IMG/VR virus record: IMGVR_UViG_3300050026_000188
Length of the DNA stretch: 47,912 bases
Source of the DNA: a virus
Strand: one strand, 5' to 3'
Shown here: in pieces, positions 1 to 47,912 of the stretch
Layout: the number at the start of each line of letters is the position of its first letter
Position numbering within the stretch: position 1 is the first letter of the stretch
Translations under genes and position numbers: made by a program
The notes under the pieces: generated by a model
What the model was told of the DNA's origin: nothing
The model's input: the letters and a program-made list of their open reading frames with translations, nothing else
The model's database searches: none

Positions 1-77
1 GAGATCGCCCCCGCCGTGTTGAGGATGCTTGTCCCATCCGGCTTCACGCCTCCGAGCACGGTCGAAGTCGCCGTGGG
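1..77. repeat. Terminal direct repeat: bases 1..77 are identical to 47836..47912
   Basis: Exact 77-nt identity by direct comparison of the first and last lines of the window; a large minus-strand ORF reads through the junction in frame. Confidence 0.9.
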
Positions 78-907
78 TAGAACATAGGCAGATGGCGTCC
101 CACTCACCTGCGAGTAGGGCAGACTTAGGCTGGGCAGTGACGTAATCGCATTGGTGATATACCCGGAGGGATTCGCGGCGCTGTATGGGGTGAATCCCAA
201 AGCCGTCGTCACCATCGAGCCGGTGATGCCGCTGATGTACCCACTCGGGTTGGTTGCGTTGTATGGAGTGAATCCGAGTGCATTCTGCTTCCCATTGAAT
301 GCGGCCCAGTCAATGTGCGATAGGTAGCCGTCCACCGATGAAGTAGCCTGAGCCATCGCGCAATCTACGCTCGATCCGCTCGTCGTGCAATCCACCGGGG
401 CCGTGCCCGTGACCGCACTCAGCCCTCCGCCAGTTGAAGCCCCCCGCGCAACCATCGCGTTAGGGCTGGCAGTGAGCGTAAGGCTTACGCTGGTTGCCGT
501 GAACGTTCCCGAAGTCACGAATTTGATATGAGTCAGGCCGGCGAGATTGACTTGATAAAGCCCGTTCGCGGTCGCTGTCACGGTTGCGGTTGGGGTTGCG
601 CCTGGCGTTACCGCAGTGATTGGAATCGAGTAGTAAGTCGCTCCGTTGTCGCTACTCCCCAACACGGCGAAGGTTGCAGTTGTCAGGGAAGTTCCGGTTA
701 CAGCGATTGTCCCCGACGCGAAAGAGCTTCCGACGGTTGAGGGCACTACCAGGCCGTTGAGTTGAAATGGGGTACTGGTTTGCCCCGTGGCGGTAAAGAT
801 CTTCGCAGGGAAAACCGAATTGCTGTAAGGGCTCGCCAACTGAGCGCGAGCGGCGGGAGCCCCTAAACCAAAGCACAACGCGAGTGCGAGTAAAATCTTA
901 GTTCTCA
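1..907 (-). CDS. N-terminal part of a giant secreted tail-fibre-like protein (continues at 47835..44232 across the junction; about 1500 aa in total)
   Basis: ATG at 907..905 preceded by GGAGGG; N-terminus MRTKILLALALCFGLGAPAARA-QL looks like a Sec signal peptide; Gly/Thr/Ser/Ala-rich; repeated ALGFTPY..NPSGYI and ..VLGGVKPDG.. fibre-like motifs; frame continues into ORF 44232..47894. Confidence 0.6.
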
Positions 908-961
908 TTATTTGAAGCCCTCCGTTATTATTTATACGTTGCGGACTGATATTATGCATCC

Positions 962-1639
962 ATGAAGTTTTACGTTTACGCCCACAAAACGATATCCCCG
1001 CGTAAGGCGGGCGAGGTCTTTTATATCGGCAAAGGGCAGCGACGGCGCGCTTGGCTCGCAACTGGGCGCAATCCTCACTGGCAACGGGTTGCATCCAAGT
1101 ATGGATTCTCCGTCATTATTCTCGCGGACGGACTAAGCGAAAAGGCGGCTTTTGACCTAGAGAAGTCGATCATTCTCATTTGCGGCCGGGCGGCTCTCTG
1201 TAACCTTACAGACGGCGGCGAAGGCATCTCGGGTGCTTCGGAAGAGATTTGCCGGAAGATCAGCGAGCGTCACAAGGGTAAACCCAAGAGTGCTCAGCAT
1301 AAACAGAAAATAGCGGCATCGCATAAGGGGATTCGGCCATCAGAAGAAACCCGAGTCAGACTCAGAGCACGCCGACCGTCCGAAGAAACTCGCGCAAAAC
1401 TCAGTGCTTCTCAAAAGGCTCGCAATATAACCGCTCCCTCAGATTTTGCCGAGCGTAGCGCTTCCATGCGAAAGGCCGTTACTTGCTCCAACGGCATGAT
1501 CTTTGATTCGGTTAGTGCTGCTGCCACATGGGCTCGGAAGAACGGCTTCCCGAAAGCGGCTACAAGCAATATCAGCAACGTCTGTAATGGCCATCGCCCA
1601 TCAGCTTGCGGTGGCCTGACCTGGGCATTCGTCAAATGA
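962..1639 (+). CDS. GIY-YIG homing endonuclease with NUMOD3-like repeats
   Basis: N-terminal FYVYAH...GEVFYIGKG...R motif (GIY-YIG); twice-repeated SEETR..L (NUMOD3-like); free-standing immediately upstream of the large terminase. Confidence 0.8.
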   Translation: MKFYVYAHKTISPRKAGEVFYIGKGQRRRAWLATGRNPHWQRVASKYGFSVIILADGLSEKAAFDLEKSIILICGRAALCNLTDGGEGISGASEEICRKISERHKGKPKSAQHKQKIAASHKGIRPSEETRVRLRARRPSEETRAKLSASQKARNITAPSDFAERSASMRKAVTCSNGMIFDSVSAAATWARKNGFPKAATSNISNVCNGHRPSACGGLTWAFVK

Positions 1640-3099
1640 TTTCCATTACTGAGGACGAAACCGAGGAAGCCGCTGCCGAAGAGATATTCGCCCGTCGCAA
1701 CGGGCAGAAGACGATGTACGGGTATATCAAATACACGATGCTTGGTTATAAAACATCGACATTTGCCGAACGAGTATGCGCGGCGATTGACAAATTTATA
1801 ACTGATGTGCAAGCGGGCAAGCGTCCGGTTTTGATTCTTCAAGCTCCCCCGCAGAGCGGAAAATCTGAAATAGCTTCTCGCAAACTACCGGCTTATTTAC
1901 TTGGCAGGTTCCCCGATTGGCGCATTGCGGCTTGCAGTTATGGTGATGAATTGGCTGGAGCAATGGCGCAAGATGTTCGCCGAAATATCAACTCGCTTGA
2001 GCACCAAAAGCTATTTCCAGCCCCGGAAGAAAAGAAGAAATACGACGTAAACCGAATGGGAGATTTTACTGCGCCAGGTGGCACTGGCAGTTATTTGGGG
2101 GTGGGTGTCGGGGGCGGTCTTACTGGCAAGAGCGCGACCATTGGAATCATCGATGATCCAATCAAAAACGAAAAGGAAGCGCTCAGCGTTACAACTAAAG
2201 AGGGGCTATGGTCTTGGTATCAAGCTACTTTTACAACGCGGCTTTCCCAAAATTCAGGTCAAGTCATAATGGCTACATCTTGGGCGGTCGATGATCTGGT
2301 TGGGCGCATCATCGATCACTTCGCCGGCGATCCCCGTCTTACTCATTTGCGATTCCCGGCGATCAACCTGCCCGATGAAGTCGGATATAACCCCAAATTA
2401 CCAGAAGGTGCTCTCGTTCCCGAGCTTCACAGTCTCGAAAAACTATATGAGACTAAAGCTCTTTTTTCCGATTATTGGTTTTCATGCTTGTATCAGCAGA
2501 GCCCGAAGGCTCTGGGCGGCAACGTCTTCAAGGATTTTTGTATTCAGTATTACAACCCGAACGATCTGCCGAAGAAATTTGACAAGGTAATAGCGTCTTG
2601 GGATTGCACTTTCAAAGACACGGACGGGACCGATTTCGTAGTCGGGCAGGTATGGGGCAAAAAGGGAGCCAACAGTTATCTACTTGATCAGATCCGCGCT
2701 CGCATGAGTTTCAGCGTTACATGCAAAGCCATCGTTACCCAGAAACTAAAATGGCCGCAGATTCGCGAGGTGCTGATTGAGGACAAGGCTAACGGACCGG
2801 CAGTTATTGACGTGCTCAAGGCTCAGGTGCCTGGCATCATCCCGATTGAGCCCGACGGCTCGAAGCTCGCCCGCGCCCATGCGGTTACATGCTACTGGGA
2901 AGCGCTCAACGTATGGCTTCCTAATGAAGCTCTTTGCCCGTGGATAAAGGCTTACGTCTCCGAGATGACTACCTTCCCGGCGGCCGCCCATGATGATCAA
3001 GTGGATAGTACGACTCAGGCGCTCCGCCGGCTCTATCCCTTATTCGGAAGGCTCAAAATAAATCGGAATGCCATAAACAAGGCACTTGGGATAAGGTAA
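1636..3099 (+). CDS. terL: Terminase large subunit
   Basis: Walker A-like PQSGKSE, Walker B-like IGIIDDP, C-terminal nuclease motifs (ASWDCTF, AAAHDDQVDS); the ATG at 1636 overlaps the endonuclease stop (ATGA); the ORF track starts at 1606 with an alternative codon. Confidence 0.85.
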   Translation: MISITEDETEEAAAEEIFARRNGQKTMYGYIKYTMLGYKTSTFAERVCAAIDKFITDVQAGKRPVLILQAPPQSGKSEIASRKLPAYLLGRFPDWRIAACSYGDELAGAMAQDVRRNINSLEHQKLFPAPEEKKKYDVNRMGDFTAPGGTGSYLGVGVGGGLTGKSATIGIIDDPIKNEKEALSVTTKEGLWSWYQATFTTRLSQNSGQVIMATSWAVDDLVGRIIDHFAGDPRLTHLRFPAINLPDEVGYNPKLPEGALVPELHSLEKLYETKALFSDYWFSCLYQQSPKALGGNVFKDFCIQYYNPNDLPKKFDKVIASWDCTFKDTDGTDFVVGQVWGKKGANSYLLDQIRARMSFSVTCKAIVTQKLKWPQIREVLIEDKANGPAVIDVLKAQVPGIIPIEPDGSKLARAHAVTCYWEALNVWLPNEALCPWIKAYVSEMTTFPAAAHDDQVDSTTQALRRLYPLFGRLKINRNAINKALGIR

Positions 3100-12079: not shown

Positions 12080-13602
12080 TGACTATTCCCGCGTCTCGAA
12101 TTGCAAGAGTAAACCCCGGCGTTGTGAATAGCGGCGGAACGTCGCTGGTGATGAATGGGCTCTTCCTCACTCAAAATACCGCGATGCCCACGGCTTCGGC
12201 TTTCAACTTCGCGAGCCCCACGGCGGTAGCAAATTTCTTCGGTCCAGCATCCGCCGAAGCCGCCCTAGCAAAGATCTATTTCGCCGGCTACAGCAATTCC
12301 ACGATCAAGCCTGGCGGGATGATCTTCGCTCCCTTCAATCTTGCCGCTCGCTCCGCCTTCCTGCAGAGCGGATCGCTCGCCGGATTGAGCCTGGCACAGC
12401 TTGAAGTGCTGAGCGGTACGCTCATCCTCACCGTTGCCGGCGTGGTAGAGACTTCGGCCGCGATTGATCTGTCTACCGCCGGCAGTTTCAGCGGCGCGGC
12501 TACTCTCATTCAAGCCGGTTTCACAACTCCCCCCTTCACCGTTGCGTGGAATCCCGTTACCAGTGCGTTCGTGATCACCACCACGGCAACCGGCGCAACG
12601 GAGACGATCACTTTCGCAAGCGGGACGCTCGCCGCCGGGCTCAATCTGACTCAGGCAACCGGCGCGATTCTCTCGCAGGGAGCCGCGCTCGATACGCCGG
12701 CTACCGCAATGGCGAACGCCGTGCGCGTGACGCAGAACTTCGCGAGCGTTGTAACGCTATGGGAGCCGACTCTCAGCGATAAGGAAGGCTTCGCGGCCTG
12801 GTTCAATGCGGCCAACCTTGAATATCTGTATCTCGGTTGGGATTCCGATCCGAACGCATCGGTACTCGGAAATACAACCTGTTTCGGCGCGGTAACGAAG
12901 GCCGCTCAGTGGAACGGCGTTGCGTGCATCTCCGGAGATCCGGCGTTAGCTCTCGCGAGCGGCACCACTCTCGCCGCGCTCGCGCTCAACGTCGCTACGT
13001 TCGTGGCCGGCGCGATTGCTTCGATCAACTCCGGCGCAACCAACGGGCGCGTTACTCTCGCCTTCCTTGCTCAGTCGGGGATGGCTCCCACGGTTGCAGA
13101 CGATCAGATCTCTCAGAATTTGCTCGCGAACGGTTACAGCTTCTACGGATCGTATGCGACGGCGAATGATGGCTTCGTTTTCTTCTACAACGGGCAGATG
13201 CCGGGCGAGTTCGGTTTCATCGATTCCTTCGTCAATCAGATTTACCTCAACGCACAATTTCAGTTGGCGATGCTCACGTTGCTTACCAACATCGGAGACT
13301 TCCCCTATACCCCATCCGGTTACGGGTTGCTTCGTTCGGCGCTGATGGACCCTATCAATGCGGCGCTTGCTTTCGGAACGATTCGCACGGGAGTTACTCT
13401 TTCGGCCGCGCAGATCTCCGAAGTCAACCTGGCCGCCGGCGTTGACGCTGCAAGCGTGATTCAGACGGCCGGCTACTACCTGCAGATCCTTGACCCTGGC
13501 GCTCAGGTTCGCGGGCTCCGCGGCAGCCCTATCGTCAACTTCTGGTATAGCGACGGCGGCGCGGTCCAATTTATCAACATGGCAAGCATTGACATTCTGT
13601 AA
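12079..13602 (+). CDS. Tail sheath protein (DUF3383-like)
   Basis: 507-aa ORF followed by a tube-like gene, then chaperone with frameshift and tape measure: the contractile-tail order. Confidence 0.65.
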   Translation: MTIPASRIARVNPGVVNSGGTSLVMNGLFLTQNTAMPTASAFNFASPTAVANFFGPASAEAALAKIYFAGYSNSTIKPGGMIFAPFNLAARSAFLQSGSLAGLSLAQLEVLSGTLILTVAGVVETSAAIDLSTAGSFSGAATLIQAGFTTPPFTVAWNPVTSAFVITTTATGATETITFASGTLAAGLNLTQATGAILSQGAALDTPATAMANAVRVTQNFASVVTLWEPTLSDKEGFAAWFNAANLEYLYLGWDSDPNASVLGNTTCFGAVTKAAQWNGVACISGDPALALASGTTLAALALNVATFVAGAIASINSGATNGRVTLAFLAQSGMAPTVADDQISQNLLANGYSFYGSYATANDGFVFFYNGQMPGEFGFIDSFVNQIYLNAQFQLAMLTLLTNIGDFPYTPSGYGLLRSALMDPINAALAFGTIRTGVTLSAAQISEVNLAAGVDAASVIQTAGYYLQILDPGAQVRGLRGSPIVNFWYSDGGAVQFINMASIDIL

Positions 13603-13911
13603 CTGAAAGAGGGCAGCATTTTGGACACTTCGATCAATGCGGCGCTCGCCTTCGGAGCCATTCGCACGGGCGTTACGCTTTCGGATGAGCAGATCTCCGA
13701 AGTCAACCAGGCCGCCGGCGTAGACGCTGCAAGCGTGATTCAGACGGCCGGCAACTACCTGCAGATCCTTGACCCTGGCGCTCAGGTTCGCGGGCTCCGC
13801 GGCAGCCCTATCGTCAACCTCTGGTACGCCGATGGTGACGCGGTCCAAACCATAACGATGGCAAGCATCGACATTCTGTAACTGAAAGAGGGCAGCATTT
13901 TGGACACTTCG
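13354..13911 (+). repeat. Tandem duplication, two 279-bp units (13354..13632 and 13633..13911), about 90% identical
   Basis: Base-by-base alignment: about 25 substitutions in the 249 coding nt, none in the 30 nt of stop + AGAGGG + TTG start region. Confidence 0.85.
13621..13881 (+). CDS. Free-standing paralogue of the sheath C-terminal domain (86 aa)
   Basis: Begins with the same AGAGGG-TTG-GAC-ACT-TCG as the tube gene, then encodes a diverged copy of the last 83 aa of the sheath. Confidence 0.4.
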   Translation: MDTSINAALAFGAIRTGVTLSDEQISEVNQAAGVDAASVIQTAGNYLQILDPGAQVRGLRGSPIVNLWYADGDAVQTITMASIDIL

Positions 13912-25290: not shown

Positions 25291-27265
25291 TGTCCCTCAA
25301 TATCGCGTGGCAATTGTCGAGATACCAGGCGTAGTCAATGTCATCCGGCAGTGAGTCCGGCAGAGTCAGGCAGGGCTTAGCGCCGTAGCTGAGGCTTACG
25401 GTGTTGCCGTTAGTGTTGTAGATGATTGAGCCGGGCGCGGATGTCGAGTAGTAGAATCTGATCACTTTGCCCATATACTCGGGCCGTTGCGGGGTGAAGC
25501 AAGATGCGTAAGCGCTCCCCGCATCCGCCAGCACGCCCGCCCGCTGCCATTTACGGCCGCTCTTCACCCATCCGTTAGCCTGCAGAGTGGCCGTCATATC
25601 GCGTATCTTTGTGCCCTTGAGCGGTCCCTCGCCCCAGAGCTTCACAGCGCCGCCGGCAACCTTGCGGACTGTCACAAATTTGCGGATATCCCGGCTCGCG
25701 GCGAGCGTATAAAGGATCGGCGTCCCCTTGCTGAGATATTCGGCCACGGCATCTGAGCAGATCTCCACATCGGGATTCTTCTTTTCGACCAGGCCGGCCT
25801 TTGAGTATTCCCCTTTGCGCTTTACCTTCCCGTCGATCTTCACTGCAAAGTAATTATTTACGTCTTTGGAATAAATGGCCTTGTAAGTATTGCTTTCCAT
25901 CTCCAAACCCGTGCTCCGCTCCCACTCTTCGATGAGCCGATCGCTCGAAGCGAGCAGATGGCGCGGGCAAAATGCCACAAACCCGTCAGTATTCGCAGAC
26001 ACAACAGGGATGCCGTTCGATTCATGCCACTCAATCAGCATCATGAGCGCAAGTTGCCCGGTGATGGTGGTTTGAATGAGCATCTCAGGGGCGAAAAGGA
26101 TGGAGAACGGGCTCCCAGTCTTCCCGAAAACGCCGTTGATCATAATCTTGCCGCCCTCGTTCTCTACCTCAGCCTTCGTGTATTCGGGAGTTCCTTTAGT
26201 AAGTGTTTTCTGTAGAGCCTTCGCCTTCAGACGCTCATCTTTGATCGCTGCATACTCATGCAGGAACGCGGGGCCGAGAGCCTTCGGATATTTTCCGGAG
26301 TTCAAGATCAGACTGGGATAGTAGCTGGCAACATCCGAATCCCTGAGTACAGCGTTTTCGTCGCTTCGGTACGCCACGCGCTTCTCGGAGGAGTGCAGGC
26401 CGCCGATCCCGAGCCGGTAGCGCGACGAGCCGATTTGGATCTCAAGTCCGTCTAGCTGGGCGGGCATGACGACGGAGCCACTCGGGCCAAGCCGGAATAC
26501 GGCCTCTCTGACCAGGGAGAACGCCTGCATGAGAGGTGCCGTCTGAAATTTGAGGAAGGATGGCGGCTCGTATTTGAAGACCAGATTCCAGTCAATCTCA
26601 GGCTTATAAATCTTCTGACCTAGAGCCTGCTCACAGCGGCGCTTTAGAACGGCTTCGGCAAGCTGAGCATCTGACTTACTTCGCAGATCAATCCCGTAGC
26701 GCTTGCTCAACTCCTGGCGCTGGTGGAGTTGGGGCGCGAGTGCATCGAATAGCCCCTCTAGGACTGAGAGATCATTTCCGCAATAGTCGTCTACTTCGGC
26801 GATCTCCGCAGGCGTGAGGTATTGATCCGGCGAGTAGGGAAGATCTCGCATCGTCTTGCAGTGGATTCGACCTGCGTACTGCTTTTGGCTGCCCGCGCCT
26901 GGCGCTACTTCCATCACATCGATGTGATCAGCCGGCCGCCACTCGGGGAGCCCTAACTCCCAGGGCTTTAGCTTCTGGACAATGATTTGATCATTGAGCC
27001 ATTTGAGTTGATCTGGGGTATAGCCCGAGAGCGCCGCGGCGATCATCGGTACATCGTAGTAATTGCCGTTGAAGCTCACGGTTGTAAAGATCTGGAATAG
27101 CGTGGTGATGCTCGCAACCGCCGCGGGCTCTAACCTCTCGCCCGCCCTCAGCGCGAACGTAAAGCATTCGCCGCCCTGAGGACGGAACTTGAGAAGCCAA
27201 AAGTTAGGAAAACATTCTGTGTCGTAAAATGCTACCGGCTTACCTGATGGTGGAGTGGGGATCAT
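25271..27265 (-). CDS. DNA polymerase, family B, with 3'-5' exonuclease
   Basis: Exo motifs FYDTE, NGNYYD, YCGND; Pol motif A DVASYYPSLI, motif B KIMINGVFGKTG, motif C variant SANTDG. Confidence 0.75.
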   Translation of the reverse strand: MIPTPPSGKPVAFYDTECFPNFWLLKFRPQGGECFTFALRAGERLEPAAVASITTLFQIFTTVSFNGNYYDVPMIAAALSGYTPDQLKWLNDQIIVQKLKPWELGLPEWRPADHIDVMEVAPGAGSQKQYAGRIHCKTMRDLPYSPDQYLTPAEIAEVDDYCGNDLSVLEGLFDALAPQLHQRQELSKRYGIDLRSKSDAQLAEAVLKRRCEQALGQKIYKPEIDWNLVFKYEPPSFLKFQTAPLMQAFSLVREAVFRLGPSGSVVMPAQLDGLEIQIGSSRYRLGIGGLHSSEKRVAYRSDENAVLRDSDVASYYPSLILNSGKYPKALGPAFLHEYAAIKDERLKAKALQKTLTKGTPEYTKAEVENEGGKIMINGVFGKTGSPFSILFAPEMLIQTTITGQLALMMLIEWHESNGIPVVSANTDGFVAFCPRHLLASSDRLIEEWERSTGLEMESNTYKAIYSKDVNNYFAVKIDGKVKRKGEYSKAGLVEKKNPDVEICSDAVAEYLSKGTPILYTLAASRDIRKFVTVRKVAGGAVKLWGEGPLKGTKIRDMTATLQANGWVKSGRKWQRAGVLADAGSAYASCFTPQRPEYMGKVIRFYYSTSAPGSIIYNTNGNTVSLSYGAKPCLTLPDSLPDDIDYAWYLDNCHAILRDIGYATI

Positions 27266-28104
27266 TACGCAGCGGCCGCGGCCTTCGGTTTGATCTCTTC
27301 AACGTAGAGATAAAGATCTAGCAAGAGCTTGCGATCAACTTCGATAAACTCCCCGTACTCTTCATCAGCGAGCATCCCGGCCACGTCTTCGAGGGCGGCA
27401 GTAACGCGCCGGATGAGTTCGGGATCGCGAGCAACCGGCTTCGGAACTTTGACCGCGCCCGGTTTCTTTACGTCGCTCCGCTCGATAGTGCCCTCTTTTT
27501 TCAAAACCTCATGCTGCTGAGCTTTGCTGAGCTTCGCGATTGCAACGGCCGCCGACTCTTTGACCCGGCCGGATTTCACCGCTTCGGCGGCTTCCTCTGA
27601 CAGAGAGATAAGCGCGATGCGGTCCTTTACGAACTTGTGGGCGGCCTTGAGTTCGCCCTCAGTCTTCGCGGTCGGGAAGTAGACGCCGGCGATCTGCTCA
27701 TCCGTCATCGCGTAGACGTTGAGAAGCCGCTTGATGTTGTGAGCGTCGTCAAGGGGAGTTGCGGGATTGCGAAAGCGATTCTCTGAGATGTTGATCAGAA
27801 ACGCTTCGCCTTCGCTGCATTGCACGTAGGTACAACGAACCTGCAGTTTGACCGGCGCGAGCCCGCGCTTGTTGATCTCGCTGATCGCACGCCAGCGAGA
27901 GAAGCCGGCAACCAGGACGGCCGCGCCGCCATCGTTGCGGATGACAACCGGCGTATGCTGCCCGCGCGCCAGGATATCGGTAATGAGCCATTCAATCTCA
28001 GGCTTTTCGTGACGACCGTTGAGATCGGGCTTGATCGTAATGTCTTCAGGGTAGAAGCGATACTCGGAGGTTCGCTTATGCTCAACTGCAAACTGTACTG
28101 CCAT
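27265..28104 (-). CDS. ParB-like nuclease-domain protein
   Basis: N-terminal TPVVIRNDGGAAVLVAGFSRWRAI block resembling the ParB N-terminal domain. Confidence 0.6.
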   Translation of the reverse strand: MAVQFAVEHKRTSEYRFYPEDITIKPDLNGRHEKPEIEWLITDILARGQHTPVVIRNDGGAAVLVAGFSRWRAISEINKRGLAPVKLQVRCTYVQCSEGEAFLINISENRFRNPATPLDDAHNIKRLLNVYAMTDEQIAGVYFPTAKTEGELKAAHKFVKDRIALISLSEEAAEAVKSGRVKESAAVAIAKLSKAQQHEVLKKEGTIERSDVKKPGAVKVPKPVARDPELIRRVTAALEDVAGMLADEEYGEFIEVDRKLLLDLYLYVEEIKPKAAAAA

Positions 28105-37824: not shown

Positions 37825-38457
37825 TCATTTGCTCACCCGCTTTAGAAATAATGCCTTCTGACGTTCAATAGCCGCCGAGTACGCCGCCCAGTACGCCGAG
37901 TCCGCCGCCGAGTCCGCCGCCGAGCGCGCCGCCGAGCGCGCCGCCAAGCGCGCCGAGTACGCCGCCGAGTCCACCGCCGAGTCCACCGAGTCCACCGAGT
38001 CCACCGCCGAGTTCGCCGAGTCCGCCGCCCAGTACGCCGAGTCCGCCGCCGAGTCCGCCGCCGAGTACGCCGCCGAGTACGCCGCCGAGCGCGCCGCCGA
38101 GCGCGCCGCCGACTTTTTATCTTCTAACTGAGCAAGCGTAATTTTTCCGTCCATAAAATCGCTCGCGGCTTGCAGCGCTTCGCGAGGGCGCTTGTCGTCA
38201 GGAAACGCCTTCTCAAAATTACCCAGAACTTCCATTGCAAAATCAACAGAGAGTAAAACGATGGCTCGCTTACAGGGCTCCGTAGTCGCTCGCATTGCCC
38301 AGATCGCATGATCTAAGCCGTTGGATTTGAGGATGCGTTTTAGACTGATTTCTTTATCGTCAGTCCACTTGGAGCCGAGTGAAGCTGTCAGAGTTTGTAA
38401 TCCAGCAGAGCAGGCGTTTGCCTTGTGAAGTAGAGCGAGCGTGGTTTTGAGCATCAT
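37825..38457 (-). CDS. Protein with a C-terminal SAA(R/Y/D) tetrapeptide repeat array
   Basis: ATG ATG at 38457 with AGGAGG upstream; non-repetitive N-terminal domain of about 110 aa, then SAARSAARSAAYSAAYSAADSAADSAYW... repeats. Confidence 0.45.
   Translation of the reverse strand: MMLKTTLALLHKANACSAGLQTLTASLGSKWTDDKEISLKRILKSNGLDHAIWAMRATTEPCKRAIVLLSVDFAMEVLGNFEKAFPDDKRPREALQAASDFMDGKITLAQLEDKKSAARSAARSAAYSAAYSAADSAADSAYWAADSANSAVDSVDSVDSAVDSAAYSARLAARSAARSAADSAADSAYWAAYSAAIERQKALFLKRVSK
37871..38112. repeat. GC-rich 12/9-bp tandem repeat array (GCCGCCGAG + 3 nt) inside a coding region
   Basis: About 20 consecutive units readable directly in the sequence. Confidence 0.85.
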
Positions 38458-38483
38458 TGTGAGCGCCTCCTGAGCGCTGATAC

Positions 38484-38512
38484 AGAGTATCAATTTACTA
38501 GTAAGCTGTCAA
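38484..38512 (-). promoter_or_regulatory. Promoter-operator cassette copy 1
   Basis: Minus strand: TTGACA - 17 nt containing TTACTAGTAA - TACTCT, then leader with AGGAGG. Confidence 0.4.
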
Positions 38513-39243: not shown

Positions 39244-39272
39244 AATCTACCAGGTTACTAGTTATCTGTCAA
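39244..39272 (-). promoter_or_regulatory. Promoter-operator cassette copy 2 (variant palindrome, leaderless layout)
   Basis: TTGACA - 17 nt with TAACTAGTAA - TAGATT, then 6 nt to ATG. Confidence 0.4.
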
Positions 39273-40435: not shown

Positions 40436-41335
40436 ATGACACCCAATAACTACCCCGTAATTACACCGCTAGCCATTCGGGGTAATTCTAAGCGCCCGTT
40501 TGCATTGTGGATGCCCGGCGCGGTAATGTGGGAAGCCAGGGATATGCTCAGTGATCGTCAAAAACGTTTCGTCTTCCATCAGGCTCGCATTACTGATGGT
40601 GCAAAGGCTTACGTATTGGCAGGTTACAGCGAGCAGGGAGCGGCTCAAGGCGCTTCGCGTCTGTTACAGAACGTTGAGATACAGGAAGCTATAGAGGTTG
40701 AGCGGGCGGACCTGGCCCGTGTCGCGAGCCTGAGCCCCGAATGGGTTTTGAATCGATGGATGTTGATCGCCAGCGCGGACCCGAGAGATCTGATCCATAC
40801 CCGCATCGGCTGCTGTCGGCATTGCTGGGGCATTGATAACAAACGGGAATGGATGGAACACGAATACGCTACCGCGCTCAACGAAGCTCTGACTTGCATG
40901 TTGCTGCCGCCGGCCTTCGAGGGTGGCCTAGGGTACTCGCCGACTCGCGAGCCTAACCCTGACTGCCCTAAGTGCAAGGGCGAAGGCTTGCCGCGGACCT
41001 GGCTCGCCGACTCCCGCAAGCTGAGCCGTTCGGCCGCGGCTCTCTTCGCTGGCGTAAAGCAGACGAAGGATGGGATTGAGATCAAGATGCACGATCAGCC
41101 CGAAGCGCTCAAGTCGCTCGCCGATTACCTGGGGATGCAGAACAAGAGCAGCGCCGATGTAAAGCTGGCTGCGGCTCTGGTGGTGGGCGGGAGCGCTAAG
41201 GATCTCTCAGACGATGAGCTTGCCGGCATCATTGAGCGGGGGCGGTTGCGGAGGGCTCGAGCTGCGACTTTGGGGGTATCTGCGGGGGTATTATCGCCGG
41301 CGGCGTTGCCAAGTAAGACAATCGAGGGCACTTAG
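40436..41335 (+). CDS. terS: Terminase small subunit-like protein (SPP1 G1P / Terminase_2-like) with Cys-rich insert
   Basis: LSDRQKRFVFHQARITDGAKAYVLAGYSEQGAAQGASRLLQNVEIQEAI...RVASLSPEWVLNRWMLIASADPRDL matches the small-terminase N-terminal pattern; CCRHC / CPKC cysteines. Confidence 0.65.
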   Translation: MTPNNYPVITPLAIRGNSKRPFALWMPGAVMWEARDMLSDRQKRFVFHQARITDGAKAYVLAGYSEQGAAQGASRLLQNVEIQEAIEVERADLARVASLSPEWVLNRWMLIASADPRDLIHTRIGCCRHCWGIDNKREWMEHEYATALNEALTCMLLPPAFEGGLGYSPTREPNPDCPKCKGEGLPRTWLADSRKLSRSAAALFAGVKQTKDGIEIKMHDQPEALKSLADYLGMQNKSSADVKLAAALVVGGSAKDLSDDELAGIIERGRLRRARAATLGVSAGVLSPAALPSKTIEGT

Positions 41336-41659: not shown

Positions 41660-41688
41660 ATATTACCAAGTTACTAGTAAGCTGTCAA
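41660..41688 (-). promoter_or_regulatory. Promoter-operator cassette copy 3
   Basis: TTGACA - 17 nt with TTACTAGTAA - TAATAT, then leader with GGAGGA. Confidence 0.45.
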
Positions 41689-41858: not shown

Positions 41859-42103
41859 GCTGCTACCTCCCACGCCCACGCGCCAGGCTTGTAAGTGCTC
41901 TGCGAGAGCTTCGAGCCGCGGAGAGTGATCACGCGAAGGCTACCGTCTGCCCGCAACACCAGAGCGCCCCCGCGCCGGCGAGCCCAGGCGTTGACGGCCG
42001 CCTTCCATGATGCCGCTTTCGTGGCGTTCGCGAGATTGCGCCATTCGGCAACGGTGAGAAGGTTGGTAGGCTGAGCGTTCGGGTTGAAGTTCGTAACTGT
42101 CAT
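41855..42103 (-). CDS. Small protein, paralogue B (MTVTNFNPNAQPT... N-terminus)
   Basis: Shares N-terminus and 5' leader with the upstream gene. Confidence 0.3.
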   Translation of the reverse strand: MTVTNFNPNAQPTNLLTVAEWRNLANATKAASWKAAVNAWARRRGGALVLRADGSLRVITLRGSKLSQSTYKPGAWAWEVAA

Positions 42104-42406
42104 TTTTGGGGTATCCTCTCGACTGCAGATACAAGAGCCTCAGCGATCCGCCGCAACGTTGCAGCATCGAAGGCGTAGTTATTCGCGGCGTTGATCCTGG
42201 CGGCCATCTCTTCGCAGGTGAGTTCCGGCGTGTTGAGGTAACGAGTGATCTCTTGAAAGAGATCCCCAGTAACTTGGTAATCTATATATGCAGTCGAGAG
42301 GATACAGCAAAATGCTTTCGTGGCGTTCGCGAGCTTGGTAGGCTGAGCGTTCGGGTTGAAGTTCGTAACTGTCATTTTTGGGGTATCTTCTCGACTGCAG
42401 ATACAG
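42015..42406. repeat. Direct repeat of about 95 bp (42015..42133 and 42314..42406) carrying leader + N-terminal coding sequence of two adjacent small genes
   Basis: Near-identical copies differing by one 28-bp indel and one substitution. Confidence 0.8.
42100..42375 (-). CDS. Small protein, paralogue A (MTVTNFNPNAQPT... N-terminus)
   Basis: ATG at 42375; the ORF track starts at 42414 with an alternative codon. Confidence 0.3.
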   Translation of the reverse strand: MTVTNFNPNAQPTKLANATKAFCCILSTAYIDYQVTGDLFQEITRYLNTPELTCEEMAARINAANNYAFDAATLRRIAEALVSAVERIPQK

Positions 42407-42433
42407 ATTAGCAAGTTACTAGTAAGCTGTCAA
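42405..42433 (-). promoter_or_regulatory. Promoter-operator cassette copy 4
   Basis: TTGACA - 17 nt with TTACTAGTAA - TAATCT. Confidence 0.4.
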
Positions 42434-42831: not shown

Positions 42832-42860
42832 ATATTACCAAGTTACTAGTAAGATGTCAA
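42832..42860 (-). promoter_or_regulatory. Promoter-operator cassette copy 5 (leaderless layout)
   Basis: TTGACA - 17 nt with TTACTAGTAA - TAATAT, then 6 nt to ATG; the 44-bp surround is nearly identical to copy 3. Confidence 0.45.
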
Positions 42861-42869
42861 GAGTTATTT

Positions 42870-43026
42870 TCAAATTCTTTTAGAAGCAATCGTTCCCTTG
42901 CTTCGCGGTATCCTGAGCTTGCGATAGAGGGTTCCCCTTCCAATCTGGATCAGCTTGGCTGCTTGGCGCTTATCGCCGTCGCATCGACGTACGGCCTCAT
43001 GGATCAGTCGCATCTCAAGCTCTGCC
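42870..43026 (-). CDS. Fis-type helix-turn-helix DNA-binding protein
   Basis: MAELEMRLIHEAVRRCDGDKRQAAKLIQIGRGTLYRKLR matches the Fis/NtrC C-terminal HTH pattern; ATG at 43026 (ORF track starts further upstream). Confidence 0.5.
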
Positions 43027-43153
43027 ATCGTTGGCAGTGTGTCGCCAAGTTCAAGGATCGGCTTCGGGAGTGGCCGCCGGCATCGTACACAGAAGGCTCG
43101 AACAAACTGATTTAGACCGCATGAGCAGCGCACTGATGGCCGCACATCGCACG

Positions 43154-43354
43154 TCACTCCGCGCCCCCGATCTCAGCGATCAGCGCCCGTATGCTCTCAA
43201 CGCTCCAAACCCGAATACGCGGGCTGAGCAGCCGGCCGGCCGGGAAGCGGCCACTTTTGACGCCCGCCCACCAGGTTGCACGGCAGACGGGGATGACGGC
43301 GAGTATTTGGGGCAATCTCACAAAACCAACTTCAGGAAGGTTCATACACTCCAT
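43154..43354 (-). CDS. AlpA-family regulator / excisionase-like HTH protein
   Basis: FVRLPQILAVIPVCRATWWAGVKSGRFPAGRLLSPRIRVWSVESIRALI matches the AlpA pattern. Confidence 0.6.
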   Translation of the reverse strand: MECMNLPEVGFVRLPQILAVIPVCRATWWAGVKSGRFPAGRLLSPRIRVWSVESIRALIAEIGGAE

Positions 43355-43442
43355 TGTAGTCCATTACCCTCTATCGTTGGGCATAACACGCAAGCGCCAG
43401 TTACCTTGACGTGACTTTGGTTACCGGGGTACTGTTGGCGAT

Positions 43443-43703
43443 ATGGCAACCCCCAACCCGCTAGACGAGATGAATTGGGAAGATCGCTTTATGTATGCGT
43501 TCCGCAGCGTGCTAGTGCTTGAGAACAGGCTCGAAGATGCGCTCGCACTACTCAAAGAGCAACGCCCTGAGATTGTGATTTTGCACAACGGCGATCAGGT
43601 TCAAAAGCTACGCGAGCGCCATCAGATCAGACAGCTACGCAAAGAAGGTGTGAGTTATCGGAACATCGCGAAGCGCATTCAACAGTTGCGGAAAGTAATT
43701 TGA
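43443..43703 (+). CDS. Hypothetical small protein with basic C-terminus
   Basis: 86-aa ORF; C-terminal RQLRKEGVSYRNIAKRIQQLRK could be a DNA-binding helix. Confidence 0.3.
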   Translation: MATPNPLDEMNWEDRFMYAFRSVLVLENRLEDALALLKEQRPEIVILHNGDQVQKLRERHQIRQLRKEGVSYRNIAKRIQQLRKVI

Positions 43704-44133
43704 CAGCGGCAATTACTGCGGGTACTGTGTTGGCTTACGGAGAGCGGCGAGACTCAACTCGTAGGGGCCATCTCTCGCCGCTTCCCCGGCAACTAACTGC
43801 GACCAAACGTCACAGCGAGCAAAAGAGCAATGTGTTGGCTTTCCGCCCCCGCACTGCTCCGATGCAAATGGCAGCCTAAAAACTGTCGGGGTACGCCGGA
43901 TGCTCTACCTGGCAACAGAAAAGGCCGGCACTATTTTAGGAGACAATCAGTGACCGTCGCAGAGCAAGTCAACCAGATCCAAAAGAAACTGCGCGAGCGG
44001 ACGATGGGCTCGCAGTTGCCGGTTGATCGCGTAGATGCTCCGTGCTGGTTGGACCTGCCGCGGGAGCGGGTGACGCTTAGATGGGGGTATTTGACGGAGA
44101 GACAGGGACACTAAGCGAGTTTGTAACCTTCAC

Positions 44134-44165
44134 AAACTAGAAGGGATACGGGCAATTGATCGCGC
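44134..44165 (-). terminator. Stem-loop between convergent genes (candidate intrinsic terminator)
   Basis: 11-bp perfect stem GGGATACGGGC / GCCCGTATCCC with a 10-nt loop; on the minus strand it is followed by UUCUAGUUUGUG. Confidence 0.4.
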
Positions 44166-44231
44166 CCGTATCCCCAAAAATACCCCTCTCGGCTTGCGCT
44201 TTACCCGCCCAGAGGGTGGTGCTAGTTACTC

Positions 44232-47200
44232 CTAGTTACCAATGCAAATATAGCGAATTGCGTCACTACCTAAACCGCCATCATCTGAAAATGTCACCGA
44301 CGATCCACTTGTGTAAGTAACTCCCAGTGCGTTAAGATTGATGGTGCTGACTGTTGCGCTCGTCATACAGGCATAAGAGGATGAACTGGTAAATATGGCT
44401 GACCCGCTAAATGTCACCGTTGCAGCACCACCAGAAAGCGTCGTCAAGCCCATCACTGTGTGCGCAGATGTCAGTTGCGTCCCGGCGGCGTTGTAGAGCG
44501 TTCCACCAGGGCACCCCGTCCCATCCGCAAGGCAGTGGGCTTCTGGTACTCCGCTACCATTCAAGTCTGTGCTGCCCGCTCCTGCTGAAGATACACCTGT
44601 GCTACTTACTTGAAACTGGCTACTTGAACCAACGGATAGCAACGCCGCTGGCGAAGTCGTCCCGATGCCGACGTTGCCTTGGAAAATACCTCCACCTGTT
44701 CCAACCCACAGACTCTTCCAACGTTGGCCCGTAACCCCAAGGTTAATCGTATTATCGAAGGCGGGGGCCGGATTAAGACCAGTTGCGGTTAATTGCATTA
44801 CATCCTCATAAGCTGGGGAACCCGGCAGCTCAAAAGCGAGCGTGGTATACGTGCTCTGCGCACCAATCCTTAAAACATTATAGGTGCTGTCCAAATATAT
44901 AAAGGCTGGCGGCGTCTGCCCATTTATTACGATTGGGTTGGCAAAGACTGTAGGATTTCCGGCGATAGTCAGGCCGCCCGTGCGCAATGCGCCAGTGCCA
45001 AGATCAAGAGCCTGTACAGGGCTCGTCGTCCCGATACCGACGTTGCCGTTATTATCTATCCTGACCTTTTCCGTTGGTCCACTAAGACCATCATTTTGCG
45101 TGAGAAAACGAATCTGCGATAGTGTATTTTGCGAACCAGATACGATGTCAAGTATTCGTGCATAGATGCCTGCCGTTGGGAAATTTTGAGCTTGGTAAAA
45201 ATTGAAAACACCTTGGTCACTAATACCATATGTTCTTAAATTAGTATCAGTAGACGGATTTCCCAAAGACAACTGCCCACTCGGCCCCGTCGTCCCGATG
45301 CCGAGTCTATGATTCGTCGCATCCCAGAAGAAATTGGAATTGTCTTGTGCGATGGTTGAGCCATTTGAGAACAACACGGAGCCAGAGGTTAGCGAAGGCA
45401 AAGTGAATGTCCCGTAAGTATTTGTGTCCAGCGCAAACGTCCCTGCTGCCGTCATCTTTACGAATGGTGTGCCCGTAGTCCATGTCGGATAATTCAACGC
45501 GCCCCATGTGCCTACGGAAGGCAGAGCCGTGCATCCCCCGCTGGACATCAATGCGCCAGAGCAAGAGCCGGAACCAAACAGCGCCGTTATATCGCTGTAT
45601 AGCGGAGTGCGCCACGCCGTGTTCCCACTATTCGCCACGCCAATCGTGTTTGCTCCGGGGTAGGTCATGGTACTGCCCGGAGTCTGCCATCCCTGAGCTG
45701 TTGCCCCAGAGTTCATCCCCCAGACTTGGTTTGCCGTGCCGTTGGTGCTGAGGTTTGTGGCTGTGGATGAGTTGCCAGTAAAAGCGGCTCCATGAAGTGT
45801 CGCTAATCCGGCTGCACTACCGAAGTATTCATCAGTTACCGCAGCATTGCCAATTACTGCTGTGTTGGAACCTGCTCCAACTGCCGTCGATCCTACTACA
45901 ATTTCGTTTGTGTTACCATTCGCACTTGCCTGTGTGTTCTGCCCCAGGAAAGTCCCGTAGCTACCCGTTATATTATGATACCCAGTAGGAAGTAAAGTTC
46001 CTGCTAAATAGCCCGCTGCTGTATTACCATTGCCCGTAGTAGTGAACTGAAGCGCCCCACTTCCAATTCCGGTACTGTAACTCCCAGAAGAGTTTGTAGC
46101 TAGGGTATTATTTCCGATTCCTATGTTATTGCCCCCACTTGTAAGATTGTAGAGGGCAGAGTCCCCTAAGCCTATATTGTTACTACCTGTCTCTATGCCA
46201 CCGTAACCTATTGCCTCAGCACCTATCGCGATATTGAATGATCCAGAGGCACCAAGTAGGTTTGATGTACCTATGGCAATGTTCACTGTGCCGGTAGAAC
46301 TTGCTAAAGTGCTACTATTACCGATGGCAATCGAACTAGCTCCTCCATACGTCAAGGGCAAACCGCCCCCTAAATTCAGATTAGAAGATGGGATGGTATA
46401 AATTGCGACCCCACTATCCTGAACCTGGTCCCCTGTTCCGGTAAAGGTTACGGCATCATTGGCGGTTGCGCTGCCGGGTCCGGTGACTGGGTTGGTAAGC
46501 GCGAGTTGGAAGTCCGTAGCCGCATGAGTCGCCGCCGTCCCTACCGTTGTAGAACAGCCGCTCGCTCCGTTGCTCAGATCGCCACATGCTGCTTGACTGA
46601 ATGTTGCGCTGCCGTTCGACTTGACCGCGCCTGTCACGGCCCCCGCGTTGTCCGCCTTCGTGCCTTGTGCCGCCGTGGCATAAGCCGTGGACGCGGTGTA
46701 AGCCGCCGACCCAACCGCACCGCTGCCAAGCAGCACCGAGCCACTTCCATAGGTACTTAGCTCGCCCAGCACGCCGCTGTTGTTGTACTCGATGTGGCCA
46801 GTCGTGCCACCCGCAATCGTCGTGGTGCCTACGGTGATCGTTCCAGCAGATGCGGATATGGTACAGGTTCCACCCAGGGCGCAGTTCTGGCCGTTGACCG
46901 TAGTCACCGAGTTTGCTAAGGCTGCGTTCGGTACCGCCTCATACGTCACCGTGTTCGTACCGGTCACTACCGGTACGGTGTTGGTTGAAGGGCTGGAACC
47001 GTAGCTAACTCCATTCACCACTGCAACCGTGGGAGTTGCGGTCGTCACTGCTGTCAACTGCCCCGCTGCGTTGTAGGTGATAACTGGTATCGCTGTCGCG
47101 CTTCCCGTCGGCCCTGCCGCCGTAATGACCCCACCCGAGGGGACGTGGCTTGCCGATGTGCCGATAGGGAGGTAGGAATAGCCCACAGTCCCAGACGAGA

Positions 47201-47912
47201 TGTTGCTGGCGTTGGAGGCGTAAGTTTCAGCATTCGATTGAGCCGTGGAAGCTGCGCCAGAAGCATCATAGGCCGTTGATGCGGTAAACGCCGCAGTACC
47301 AAATACGCCCCCAGCCGCAGTCGTCAGATAGGAAAGCGTCGTTACGGTTGGCGCAACCGGAGTGTAGGTCAACGCGGTAGTCACCTGGCCAGAGGTCATG
47401 CCGGTTAGGTTCGCCATACTGAAGGTCGGTGCCGCCGTGAAAGTCGGAGCCGCGCTGCTGCCGGTGAAGTTGCCAAAAACGGTGTTCGCCGCCTGATTCT
47501 TGAGTGTTGCCGTGACCGTTCCGCTGGTTGTTACCGCTGTACTCGGAGTCGAACTGTCCACCGTGCCATCGCCCGTGAAGGTCACGCTGCTTACGCTTCC
47601 CGTAGATGTTCCGCACGTTGGGCAAGAGATCGCTCCCGTTGCCGCGACTACAATTGGGAGTGTTCCGCTCAGTCCAGCCGAACCAACCGAGCCGATGGGA
47701 ATGCCAGTCGGCAGATAACTCACTCCAATGGTTCCAGTGTTGATGTGGCTGGCATTCTGCGCGTAAGTCTCGGCATTGCTCTGAGCCGTTGCCGCCGCAC
47801 CGGAAGCATCCGCTCCCACACTTGCCGCTGTTGCCGAGATCGCCCCCGCCGTGTTGAGGATGCTTGTCCCATCCGGCTTCACGCCTCCGAGCACGGTCGA
47901 AGTCGCCGTGGG
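44232..47912 (-). CDS. C-terminal part of the giant secreted tail-fibre-like protein (N-terminal part at 907..1)
   Basis: ORF is open to the window edge and matches 1..77; A..S..A..S fibre-type repeats (TAQSNAETYA.NAS twice); several N.GIGTTSP motifs. Confidence 0.6.
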   Translation of the reverse strand, partial: PTATSTVLGGVKPDGTSILNTAGAISATAASVGADASGAAATAQSNAETYAQNASHINTGTIGVSYLPTGIPIGSVGSAGLSGTLPIVVAATGAISCPTCGTSTGSVSSVTFTGDGTVDSSTPSTAVTTSGTVTATLKNQAANTVFGNFTGSSAAPTFTAAPTFSMANLTGMTSGQVTTALTYTPVAPTVTTLSYLTTAAGGVFGTAAFTASTAYDASGAASTAQSNAETYASNASNISSGTVGYSYLPIGTSASHVPSGGVITAAGPTGSATAIPVITYNAAGQLTAVTTATPTVAVVNGVSYGSSPSTNTVPVVTGTNTVTYEAVPNAALANSVTTVNGQNCALGGTCTISASAGTITVGTTTIAGGTTGHIEYNNSGVLGELSTYGSGSVLLGSGAVGSAAYTASTAYATAAQGTKADNAGAVTGAVKSNGSATFSQAACGDLSNGASGCSTTVGTAATHAATDFQLALTNPVTGPGSATANDAVTFTGTGDQVQDSGVAIYTIPSSNLNLGGGLPLTYGGASSIAIGNSSTLASSTGTVNIAIGTSNLLGASGSFNIAIGAEAIGYGGIETGSNNIGLGDSALYNLTSGGNNIGIGNNTLATNSSGSYSTGIGSGALQFTTTGNGNTAAGYLAGTLLPTGYHNITGSYGTFLGQNTQASANGNTNEIVVGSTAVGAGSNTAVIGNAAVTDEYFGSAAGLATLHGAAFTGNSSTATNLSTNGTANQVWGMNSGATAQGWQTPGSTMTYPGANTIGVANSGNTAWRTPLYSDITALFGSGSCSGALMSSGGCTALPSVGTWGALNYPTWTTGTPFVKMTAAGTFALDTNTYGTFTLPSLTSGSVLFSNGSTIAQDNSNFFWDATNHRLGIGTTGPSGQLSLGNPSTDTNLRTYGISDQGVFNFYQAQNFPTAGIYARILDIVSGSQNTLSQIRFLTQNDGLSGPTEKVRIDNNGNVGIGTTSPVQALDLGTGALRTGGLTIAGNPTVFANPIVINGQTPPAFIYLDSTYNVLRIGAQSTYTTLAFELPGSPAYEDVMQLTATGLNPAPAFDNTINLGVTGQRWKSLWVGTGGGIFQGNVGIGTTSPAALLSVGSSSQFQVSSTGVSSAGAGSTDLNGSGVPEAHCLADGTGCPGGTLYNAAGTQLTSAHTVMGLTTLSGGAATVTFSGSAIFTSSSSYACMTSATVSTINLNALGVTYTSGSSVTFSDDGGLGSDAIRYICIGN

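Follow-up and report, generated by a model that had tools for sequence, protein, structure and literature searches.

An orphan AlpA-type gene in the complete genome of an integrase-less myovirus with integrase-bearing relatives

The AlpA-type gene and its genome

We analyzed a viral DNA stretch of 47,912 nt (IMG/VR record IMGVR_UViG_3300050026_000188), referred to below as the window, for which an initial annotation had pointed out an AlpA-type open reading frame (ORF) and a ParB-like gene but no recognizable integrase. The 66-aa product of the AlpA-type ORF is the main subject of this analysis. The window is a complete circular genome with a unique length of 47,835 bp after the 77-bp terminal overlap is discounted. 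Because this overlap is exact and marks a circular, complete assembly, the lack of an integrase can be stated for the whole genome.

The gene set is that of a myovirus. The structural genes code for TerL, the portal, a Mu-F-like protein, DUF2213, cement and capsid proteins, a DUF3383 sheath and an E217/Pam3-type baseplate. The replication module comprises a family-A DNA polymerase (phrog_1252), the ParB-like protein, a gp2.5-like single-stranded DNA-binding protein (SSB), a DUF2800 nuclease, an SNF2-type helicase, DUF4406, an endonuclease, a Dam methylase and a DUF5906/NrS-1-type primase-polymerase. Half of the genome, compared by megablast with 50,697 phage records, gave no match. Judged by the DNA polymerase, the closest isolates are only about 42% identical, and among bacterial genomes a scan brought up only a polymerase with 37% identity, from a prophage within a Caulobacteraceae metagenome-assembled genome (MAG).

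The AlpA-type gene translates into MECMNLPEVGFVRLPQILAVIPVCRATWWAGVKSGRFPAGRLLSPRIRVWSVESIRALIAEIGGAE. In a direct Pfam scan this sequence matched PF05930 (Phage_AlpA) with 15.9 bits (E = 0.012), under the gathering score of 21, and PHROG and NCBIfam searches gave no match. A database search, however, collected 192 homologues at E of 1e-14 or below, and 25 contigs code for an identical protein. When sampled homologues were scanned on their own, 36 out of 50 matched PF05930 (best 1.4e-9). The profile derived from the family alignment had as its best PDB match 8c3t, annotated as an 'AlpA family phage regulatory protein' (E 2.9e-4). The AlphaFold model of the protein (mean predicted local distance difference test score, pLDDT, of 83.6) shows the order strand-helix-helix-strand-strand-helix, with a two-stranded wing and a C-terminal helix, as is typical of small winged-helix proteins (about 60-80 aa) with a fold of the Xis/MerR N-domain type. 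It superimposes best on 8c3t, the GIsul2 excisionase (template modelling (TM) scores 0.76/0.87, root-mean-square deviation 1.6 A), followed by BldC, mycobacteriophage Pukovnik Xis, RdfS, TorI and MerR N-terminal domains. The homologues, the PDB profile match and the predicted fold all agree, and we regard it as solid, with the fold taken from a model, that the ORF codes for a genuine AlpA/Xis-type winged-helix DNA-binding protein. The AlpA label of the initial annotation was therefore correct, yet not obvious from one profile scan, because the direct PF05930 score is sub-threshold.

The features surrounding this gene, together with others discussed below, are compiled in Table 1. A promoter scan found no sigma-70 consensus promoter for AlpA in the 88-bp region that separates it from the divergent gene for an 86-aa helix-turn-helix (HTH) protein.

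Table 1. Positions of the features of the window discussed in the text
Feature	Position	Strand	Remarks
AlpA/Xis-type winged-helix gene	43154..43354	(-)	66 aa, ATG start; genome without integrase partner
Divergent intergenic region, AlpA/86-aa HTH gene	43355..43442	.	88 bp
86-aa HTH protein	43443..43703	(+)	weak HTH_38 match (1.1e-4); divergent from AlpA
tmRNA 3' remnant	43786..43930	(+)	145 nt; tag-coding stretch and downstream helix (alignment A3)
94-aa ORF	43830..44114	(+)	orthologous to L010 80-aa ORF (54.8% identity)
Junction	44115..44231	.	117 bp with terminator hairpin 44142..44175; integrase-gene position in relatives (L010, L192, L193, L036)
Fibre-like protein (1504 aa), distal and central part	44232..47912	(-)	gene spans circular junction
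Fibre-like gene, 5' part	1..908	(-)	start at about 908; signal-peptide-like N-terminus MRTKILLALALCFGLGAPAARAQ
Circular-assembly overlap	47836..47912 = bases 1-77	.	77 bp, exact terminal direct repeat
Fis-type HTH_8 gene	42870..43157	(-)	PF02954 1.3e-10; NCBIfam matches to Fis/NtrC C-terminal HTH
Early promoter copy	42832..42860	(-)	TTGACA, 17-nt spacer with TTACTAGTAA palindrome, TAATAT
Early promoter copies	42405..42433; 41660..41688	(-)	palindromic spacer
Early promoter copy	38484..38512	(-)	palindromic spacer; upstream of Imm5-like gene
Fifth early promoter copy	39244..39272	(-)	
TerS (Terminase_2 small subunit)	40436..41335	(+)	convergent with AlpA-led leftward operon
ParB/Noc/Spo0J-like protein	27265..28104	(-)	279 aa; inside replication module

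Integrase and attachment site in the window and in related phages

Pfam searches of 69 ORFs (59 chosen ones and 10 large shadow ORFs) detected no tyrosine or serine recombinase, DDE transposase, protelomerase or ParA, and no plasmid Rep or plasmid replication initiator family was found in the Pfam-scanned ORFs. When the integrases of three related phages were compared with the circularized genome by tblastn, the best E value was 1.7. We also built a custom hidden Markov model (HMM) iteratively from 43 tyrosine integrases adjoining AlpA homologues and ran it, with all filters off, against all stop-to-stop frames of at least 50 aa; the best E value was 0.66. The profile search proposed in the initial annotation (Pfam and the custom HMM), supplemented with tblastn, detected no recombinase domain and so bears out its statement that no integrase is recognizable. 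Within the window genome, AlpA is left without the cognate tyrosine integrase that a recombination directionality factor has in the same element.

Four related species were used for comparison; their TerL is 66-87% identical to that of the window where the fetched DNA includes TerL. The relatives' integrase is a P4-type tyrosine integrase located just upstream of the AlpA orthologue. In a 42-kb contig (L015), which resembles the window in helicase (76% identity), primase-polymerase (60%), endonuclease (66%) and AlpA (68%), a 394-aa integrase with Arm-DNA-bind_3, Phage_int_M and Phage_integrase domains lies about 1 kb upstream of AlpA. The second species (L017/L018; TerL 66%, portal 57%) has the order TerL(-), 82-aa ORF, integrase(+), AlpA(+), TerS(-), and in the third (L036; TerL 74%) TerL(-) is followed by a fibre-like gene (990 aa, with signal peptide), an HNH-like ORF, an integrase of full length, a 79-aa ORF and AlpA. 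The closest relative, L010 (TerL 87%, portal 89%, AlpA 71%), occurs as the same species in two further samples (L192 and L193) and displays TerL(-), a 1041-aa fibre-like gene, the integrase, three small ORFs and AlpA. Its integrase is 5'-truncated (7222..8343 in L010, 7300..8346 in L192/L193), with the same state present in three independent samples. The frame opens directly after the stop codon of the fibre-like gene and in the same frame, at about integrase residue 32, and the first start codon (ATG) is found only at about residue 50; most of the arm-binding domain is gone (31-50 codons missing). Judged by its sequence, the truncated gene looks like an intermediate state in integrase loss.

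The window has the same gene order as these relatives, namely TerL, the fibre-like gene, AlpA and convergent TerS. TerS is about 8 kb away from TerL (1606..3099(+)), and the linkage of AlpA with TerS is kept in L015, L017, L016, L190 and L192. L016 is a satellite-like element integrated in a MAG contig, with tRNA-Val, integrase, AlpA (66% identical to that of the window), primase-polymerase and TerS.

At the position of the integrase, only 117 bp of the window separate the stop codon of the fibre-like gene (44232) from the stop of the convergent 94-aa ORF. The 80-aa counterpart of this ORF in L010 is convergent with the 3' end of the integrase and abuts that end. The DNA of the junction is too divergent between the window and L010 for the deletion breakpoints to be mapped by alignment. 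The 1504-aa fibre-like protein has no Pfam match. Among the three fibre-like proteins only the first 155-160 residues are common (68-77% identity), and the sequences are unrelated thereafter. Population variation is likewise concentrated in the 3' part of the fibre-like gene, which is the most variable region of the genome in the population; one variant (L001) is without about 2 kb of the gene, and contigs tend to end near this hypervariable 3' end (L009).

The window's own species is represented by 14 loci from at least 10 samples in three collections (JGI, Logan and IMG/VR). They are 97.7-100% identical to the window over 43300..44400, AlpA is identical in all of them, and none of the 14 has an integrase. 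An integrase-bearing variant of the same species, sought by means of the identical 86-aa protein, was not found either. The check for integrated copies suggested in the initial annotation gave none among the contigs with an identical AlpA or 86-aa protein: no such contig exceeds 50 kb (41 and 59 blocks of the assembly collection), and every displayed place with either protein has the same phage context. The longest contig with an identical AlpA has 49,110 bp, about 1.2 kb more than this genome. The same-species loci are consistent with a free, non-integrating phage, although they do not prove it.

How tightly is an AlpA of this kind bound to an integrase? A tyrosine integrase is present in the fetched flank of 37 of the 80 viral loci with this AlpA subfamily, at a median distance of 1.1 kb, and in 29 of these 37 it is upstream of AlpA on the same strand. 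If only loci flanked by 3 kb or more on each side are counted, the fraction is 19 of 34. Pairing of AlpA with an integrase is thus frequent but far from obligatory, and the general rule invoked in the initial annotation, that AlpA usually accompanies an integrase, is only about half true for this subfamily.

The AlpA of the window also differs from those of its integrase-bearing syntenic relatives (L010, L015, L017, L036 and L016), all of which have, between helices 1 and 2, an 8-aa loop (consensus GDxKRGIP) missing from the window protein. Its nearest homologues, P0002 and P0003, are likewise without the insertion; the contigs of the closest AlpA homologues, L190 and L191, are too short to reveal any integrase beyond. 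Pairwise ratios of nonsynonymous to synonymous substitution rates (dN/dS) are 0.17-0.47 for the window AlpA and, at a similar level, 0.14-0.39 for the integrase-bearing relatives among themselves, values that have little power as they derive from 65 codons. Variation at alpA within the species is too low for a selection test. Taken together, the dN/dS and loop data do not separate retained function from recent loss.

In two of the relatives, full-length permuted (two-piece) genes for transfer-messenger RNA (tmRNA) are present between the integrase and AlpA (L015 1951..2243(-) and L010 9398..9705(-)). They score 105.9 and 75.3 bits with RF04321 (gathering score 47) and cover model positions 1-213 of 213. 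T-arm and CCA end are present in both, and the tag frame closes with AA-stop; the L015 gene also matches alpha_tmRNA. In L015 the 3' end of the tmRNA gene faces the 3' end of the integrase. The same topology is observed for tRNA-Val and the integrase of L016, which is integrated beside host genes, and the topology in L011 (tRNA-Pro) and L008 (tRNA-Asn) is similar. The T-arm region of tRNA or tmRNA genes is the classical target of P4-type integrases, and ssrA is known as both target and passenger of mobile DNA (PMC5148205). The tmRNA copy of the relatives is probably the phage attachment site (attP), its orientation being that expected for restoring host ssrA. An attP that restores a permuted ssrA would have to carry nearly the whole gene, since the T-arm is near the 5' end, and the full-length copies fit this. 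The permuted tmRNA would also point to a host with a two-piece tmRNA, such as an alphaproteobacterium.

The window retains only a part of this gene, the 145-nt 3' remnant. It is 81.8% identical to L010 9494..9349 over 148 nt (E 4e-35), and its translation ends in ...KSNVLAFRPRTAPMQMAA, resembling the L010 tag. An intact tmRNA in the window was considered and rejected: Rfam and ARAGORN revealed no tRNA or tmRNA genes there, and a T-arm/acceptor core was absent from the entire genome with 10 mismatches in 32 allowed. The 86-aa HTH gene stands where the relatives have the tmRNA acceptor piece and is unrelated to that piece (alignment A3); no homologue of the HTH protein was found in L010, L015 or L017. 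The window thus has no core matching a host tRNA or tmRNA gene, and this remnant is all that is retained. It is probably an attP relic. As both the integrase and the T-arm/acceptor core are absent, both halves of the integration apparatus are gone.

Proposed loss of integration and its alternatives

We propose, with a probability of roughly 0.7, that the window phage, which has neither integrase nor attP, does not integrate and stems from a temperate lineage of tmRNA/tRNA-integrating phages, with AlpA as a survivor. Its ancestor would have had the AlpA gene just downstream of a P4-type integrase, as seen in the sister phages, along with a tmRNA gene that probably served as attP, as in two of them. 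The probable cause of the integrase removal would be an exchange of the fibre distal module with one breakpoint downstream of the gene. The integrase and the T-arm/acceptor part of the tmRNA, which is the usual crossover site, would have been deleted, leaving behind the 117-bp terminator junction and the 145-nt remnant. Because of the deletion of both, the phage should be unable to integrate by itself and would most likely be obligately lytic. AlpA, having no recombinase partner, would persist as a transcription regulator, as suggested by AlpA-family regulators. With the Fis-type HTH protein it might form a small regulatory unit that opens the leftward early region.

Integrase loss is a known phenomenon and an ordinary evolutionary outcome, of which the window represents a clean case. 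The comparison outlines the passage of a temperate lineage to a non-integrating one, with intact integrase, 5'-truncated integrase and no integrase as its stages (one species each). It also indicates that an AlpA/excisionase annotation is an unreliable lysogeny marker when lifestyle is predicted for metagenomic genomes. The full tmRNA of the relatives, in turn, suggests how phages targeting a two-piece ssrA carry almost the whole gene in attP.

Several considerations weigh against the proposed descent. The non-integrating lifestyle is read from assembled sequences. Most metagenome contigs are short, so that the lack of a carrier contig above 50 kb says little. The tmRNA of the relatives could be cargo instead of attP, and tmRNA genes are known as phage cargo (PMC9004378). 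An orphan state is not unusual, with 44% of the well-flanked viral AlpA loci having no integrase nearby, so that recent loss is not implied. The window AlpA may be a different allele gained by recombination. The dN/dS values reflect purifying selection over the whole history of AlpA and not specifically after the integrase loss. Finally, the lack of a recognizable sigma-70 promoter for AlpA would also fit a decaying gene.

A non-integrating lifestyle was already one of the possibilities raised in the initial annotation and stands as the best reading, but the plasmid-like form of it, for which the ParB-like gene had been cited, does not gain from that gene. Some integrase-less temperate mycobacteriophages carry parABS at the integrase locus and lysogenize without integration. 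Like them, the window phage comes from a temperate lineage, lacks an integrase and codes for a ParB-type protein, so that it might be an extrachromosomal, plasmid-like prophage using this protein for partition. The ParB-like gene is certainly present, as the initial annotation stated. Its product matches HTH_ParB (1.1e-5), PDB ParB 7o0n (1e-8 over residues 35-173) and phrog_1033, as well as TIGR00180 with 2e-12 and 47.3 bits, under the cut-off of 58.45. It has the bona fide N-terminal ParB/Srx domain and the HTH of partition ParB proteins. The conserved palindrome of the early promoters could be a repressor operator, and several small HTH proteins are encoded. However, ParA, CbiA and AAA_31 had no match in any Pfam-scanned ORF, and protelomerase and plasmid Rep are missing from the scanned ORFs as well. 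No canonical parS was found in the genome at up to 3 mismatches, the consensus being chromosomal, from which phage or plasmid parS may differ. Moreover, in contrast to the mycobacteriophage case, the ParB-like gene is located in the replication module, away from the integrase locus, with SSB and DNA polymerase as neighbours. The SSB-ParB-DNA polymerase order is fixed in six further viral contigs (L026-L032), where ParB is 49-61% and the polymerase 62-68% identical, and orphan ParB-like genes are common as PHROG families of phage nucleotide metabolism. By this conserved context, the gene appears to be a core replication-module gene and not a partition cassette, and carries no weight for a plasmid lifestyle; a lone ParB-like gene should not be taken as a marker of a plasmid prophage. 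We therefore consider a plasmid-like prophage unlikely.

Equally improbable in our view is that AlpA serves the integrase of another element in trans, be it as recombination directionality factor or as regulator, and for example sets off excision when a prophage, satellite or island resides in the infected cell. Experiments have demonstrated that AlpA-type excisionases cross-talk between elements present in the same cell (PMC11773190), the satellite-like L016 has a module in common with the phage, and the closest solved structure is an excisionase. This possibility is nevertheless purely inferential, and the AlpA gene has no strong promoter.

The remaining alternatives have very little chance of being correct. 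Several early proteins (242, 225 and 264 aa, among others) are without a family assignment or sequence relatives in PDB, where searches with these three gave nothing useful; yet the novel integration function that the initial annotation envisaged among such genes is hardly credible, given that a canonical P4-type integrase occupies the syntenic site in the relatives, homologues of the 225- and 242-aa proteins co-occur with it in L015 and L036, the 264-aa protein is a conserved replication-module gene, and the attP core is gone. The length of the longest contig with an identical AlpA (49,110 bp) and the contig breaks near the fibre 3' end might hint at an assembly artefact or a minority deletion variant with the integrase collapsed out of the contig, but this can be dismissed because the same integrase-less junction recurs in the 14 loci at 97.7-100% identity, across at least 10 samples and three collections, with no integrase at any locus coding for the identical 86-aa protein.

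The lineage in which we place the window has clear parallels among known systems. The AlpA-IntA pair of P4-like cryptic prophages in ssrA (E. coli CP4-57 and Shewanella CP4So) combines a small AlpA, a P4-type integrase and tmRNA (PMC5148205), as do the relatives of the window. Unlike these prophages, the window has neither an integrase nor a usable attP, and its relatives, in which the tmRNA is permuted, two-piece and full length, are not cryptic islands but entire myoviruses that encode a DNA polymerase themselves. In GIsul2, alpA follows the integrase (PMC9376610), the arrangement of 29 of the 37 integrase-bearing viral loci. The GIsul2 excisionase (8c3t) shares only 21% identity with the window AlpA, however, and works with an adjacent integrase, whereas the window has none. 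In phage-inducible chromosomal islands (PICIs) of Gram-negative bacteria, a small AlpA is encoded beside primase and small-terminase genes and acts as a transcription activator, not only as an excisionase (PMC11773190). A PICI-like layout of integrase, AlpA, primase and TerS at tRNA-Val is found in the related L016. In contrast to PICIs, which are satellites, the window represents an entire phage genome that includes every structural gene, and its AlpA is a putative activator.

Early promoters and the possible present role of AlpA

The AlpA gene is intact. It is followed by the Fis-type HTH gene, and this unit, itself without a consensus promoter, lies upstream of a strong early-promoter series. 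In its 95-aa reading the Fis-type gene begins with a GTG overlapping the stop codon of AlpA; gene callers choose a 52-aa form starting from 43028. The longer reading adds 43 aa at the N-terminus, among them five cysteines (CxxxxxxxCxC...CxxC) that may form a zinc ribbon.

The promoters have the form TTGACA-GCTTACTAGTAACTTGG-TAATAT, which is near-consensus sigma-70 with an extended -10. Five copies exist, each on the same strand as AlpA. The conserved spacer contains a 10-bp palindrome, TTACTAGTAA, of which four exact copies are present and zero are expected. The promoter motif is also found in seven copies in L036, in two in L015, and in L190 and L191. On sequence grounds the palindromic spacer is a lineage-wide regulatory element and a candidate operator. 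In the same region, a 74-nt direct repeat (42060..42133 and 42332..42405, 97% identity) comprises the ribosome-binding sites and opening codons (MTVTNFNPNAQPT...) of two small early genes that lie next to each other, and part of it forms a 45-nt inverted repeat with 42268..42312.

AlpA excisionases have been described for P4-like elements in ssrA (PMC5148205) and for GIsul2 (PMC9376610). In PICIs, AlpA is the master transcription activator, and AlpA paralogues excise other elements, with cross-talk between them (PMC11773190). A tentative possibility, which we would not favor on present evidence, is that the window AlpA has been retained for a job of its own after the integrase loss, either as a regulator at the TTACTAGTAA promoters or in trans on resident islands and satellites integrated in tmRNA or tRNA genes, whose excision it would force or block. 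If so, the orphan AlpA would be an excisionase-family protein repurposed by a lytic phage.

The Pseudomonas aeruginosa AlpA, a Q-like antiterminator, was examined as another model and rejected, as it is a large eight-helix protein of unrelated architecture. The two proteins have the same name, and the antiterminator likewise functions with no integrase. It binds an element placed between -35 and -10 (PMC9371919), a position resembling that of the spacer palindrome in the window. However, the P. aeruginosa protein is 21Q-like, with an N-terminal ring that enters the RNA exit channel (PMC9371919), which is impossible for a 66-aa winged helix, and it was absent from the PDB profile search and from the top 50 fold matches of the window AlpA.

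Three further observations concern other parts of the genome. Immediately upstream of TerL, and overlapping it, is the gene for the 225-aa protein (962..1639(+)), divergent from the fibre-like gene; the protein is homing-endonuclease-like, with a phrog_314 match at 3.4e-20 and a weak NUMOD3 match. A 279-nt tandem duplication (13354..13632 and 13633..13911, 91% identity) is located at the sheath gene's 3' end, ahead of the tube gene. The Imm5-like gene (37825..38493, (-)) includes a long run of imperfect 12-nt (and 9-nt) repeats of the GCCGCCGAGTMC type at 37861..38132 and holds several of the few differences between population variants.

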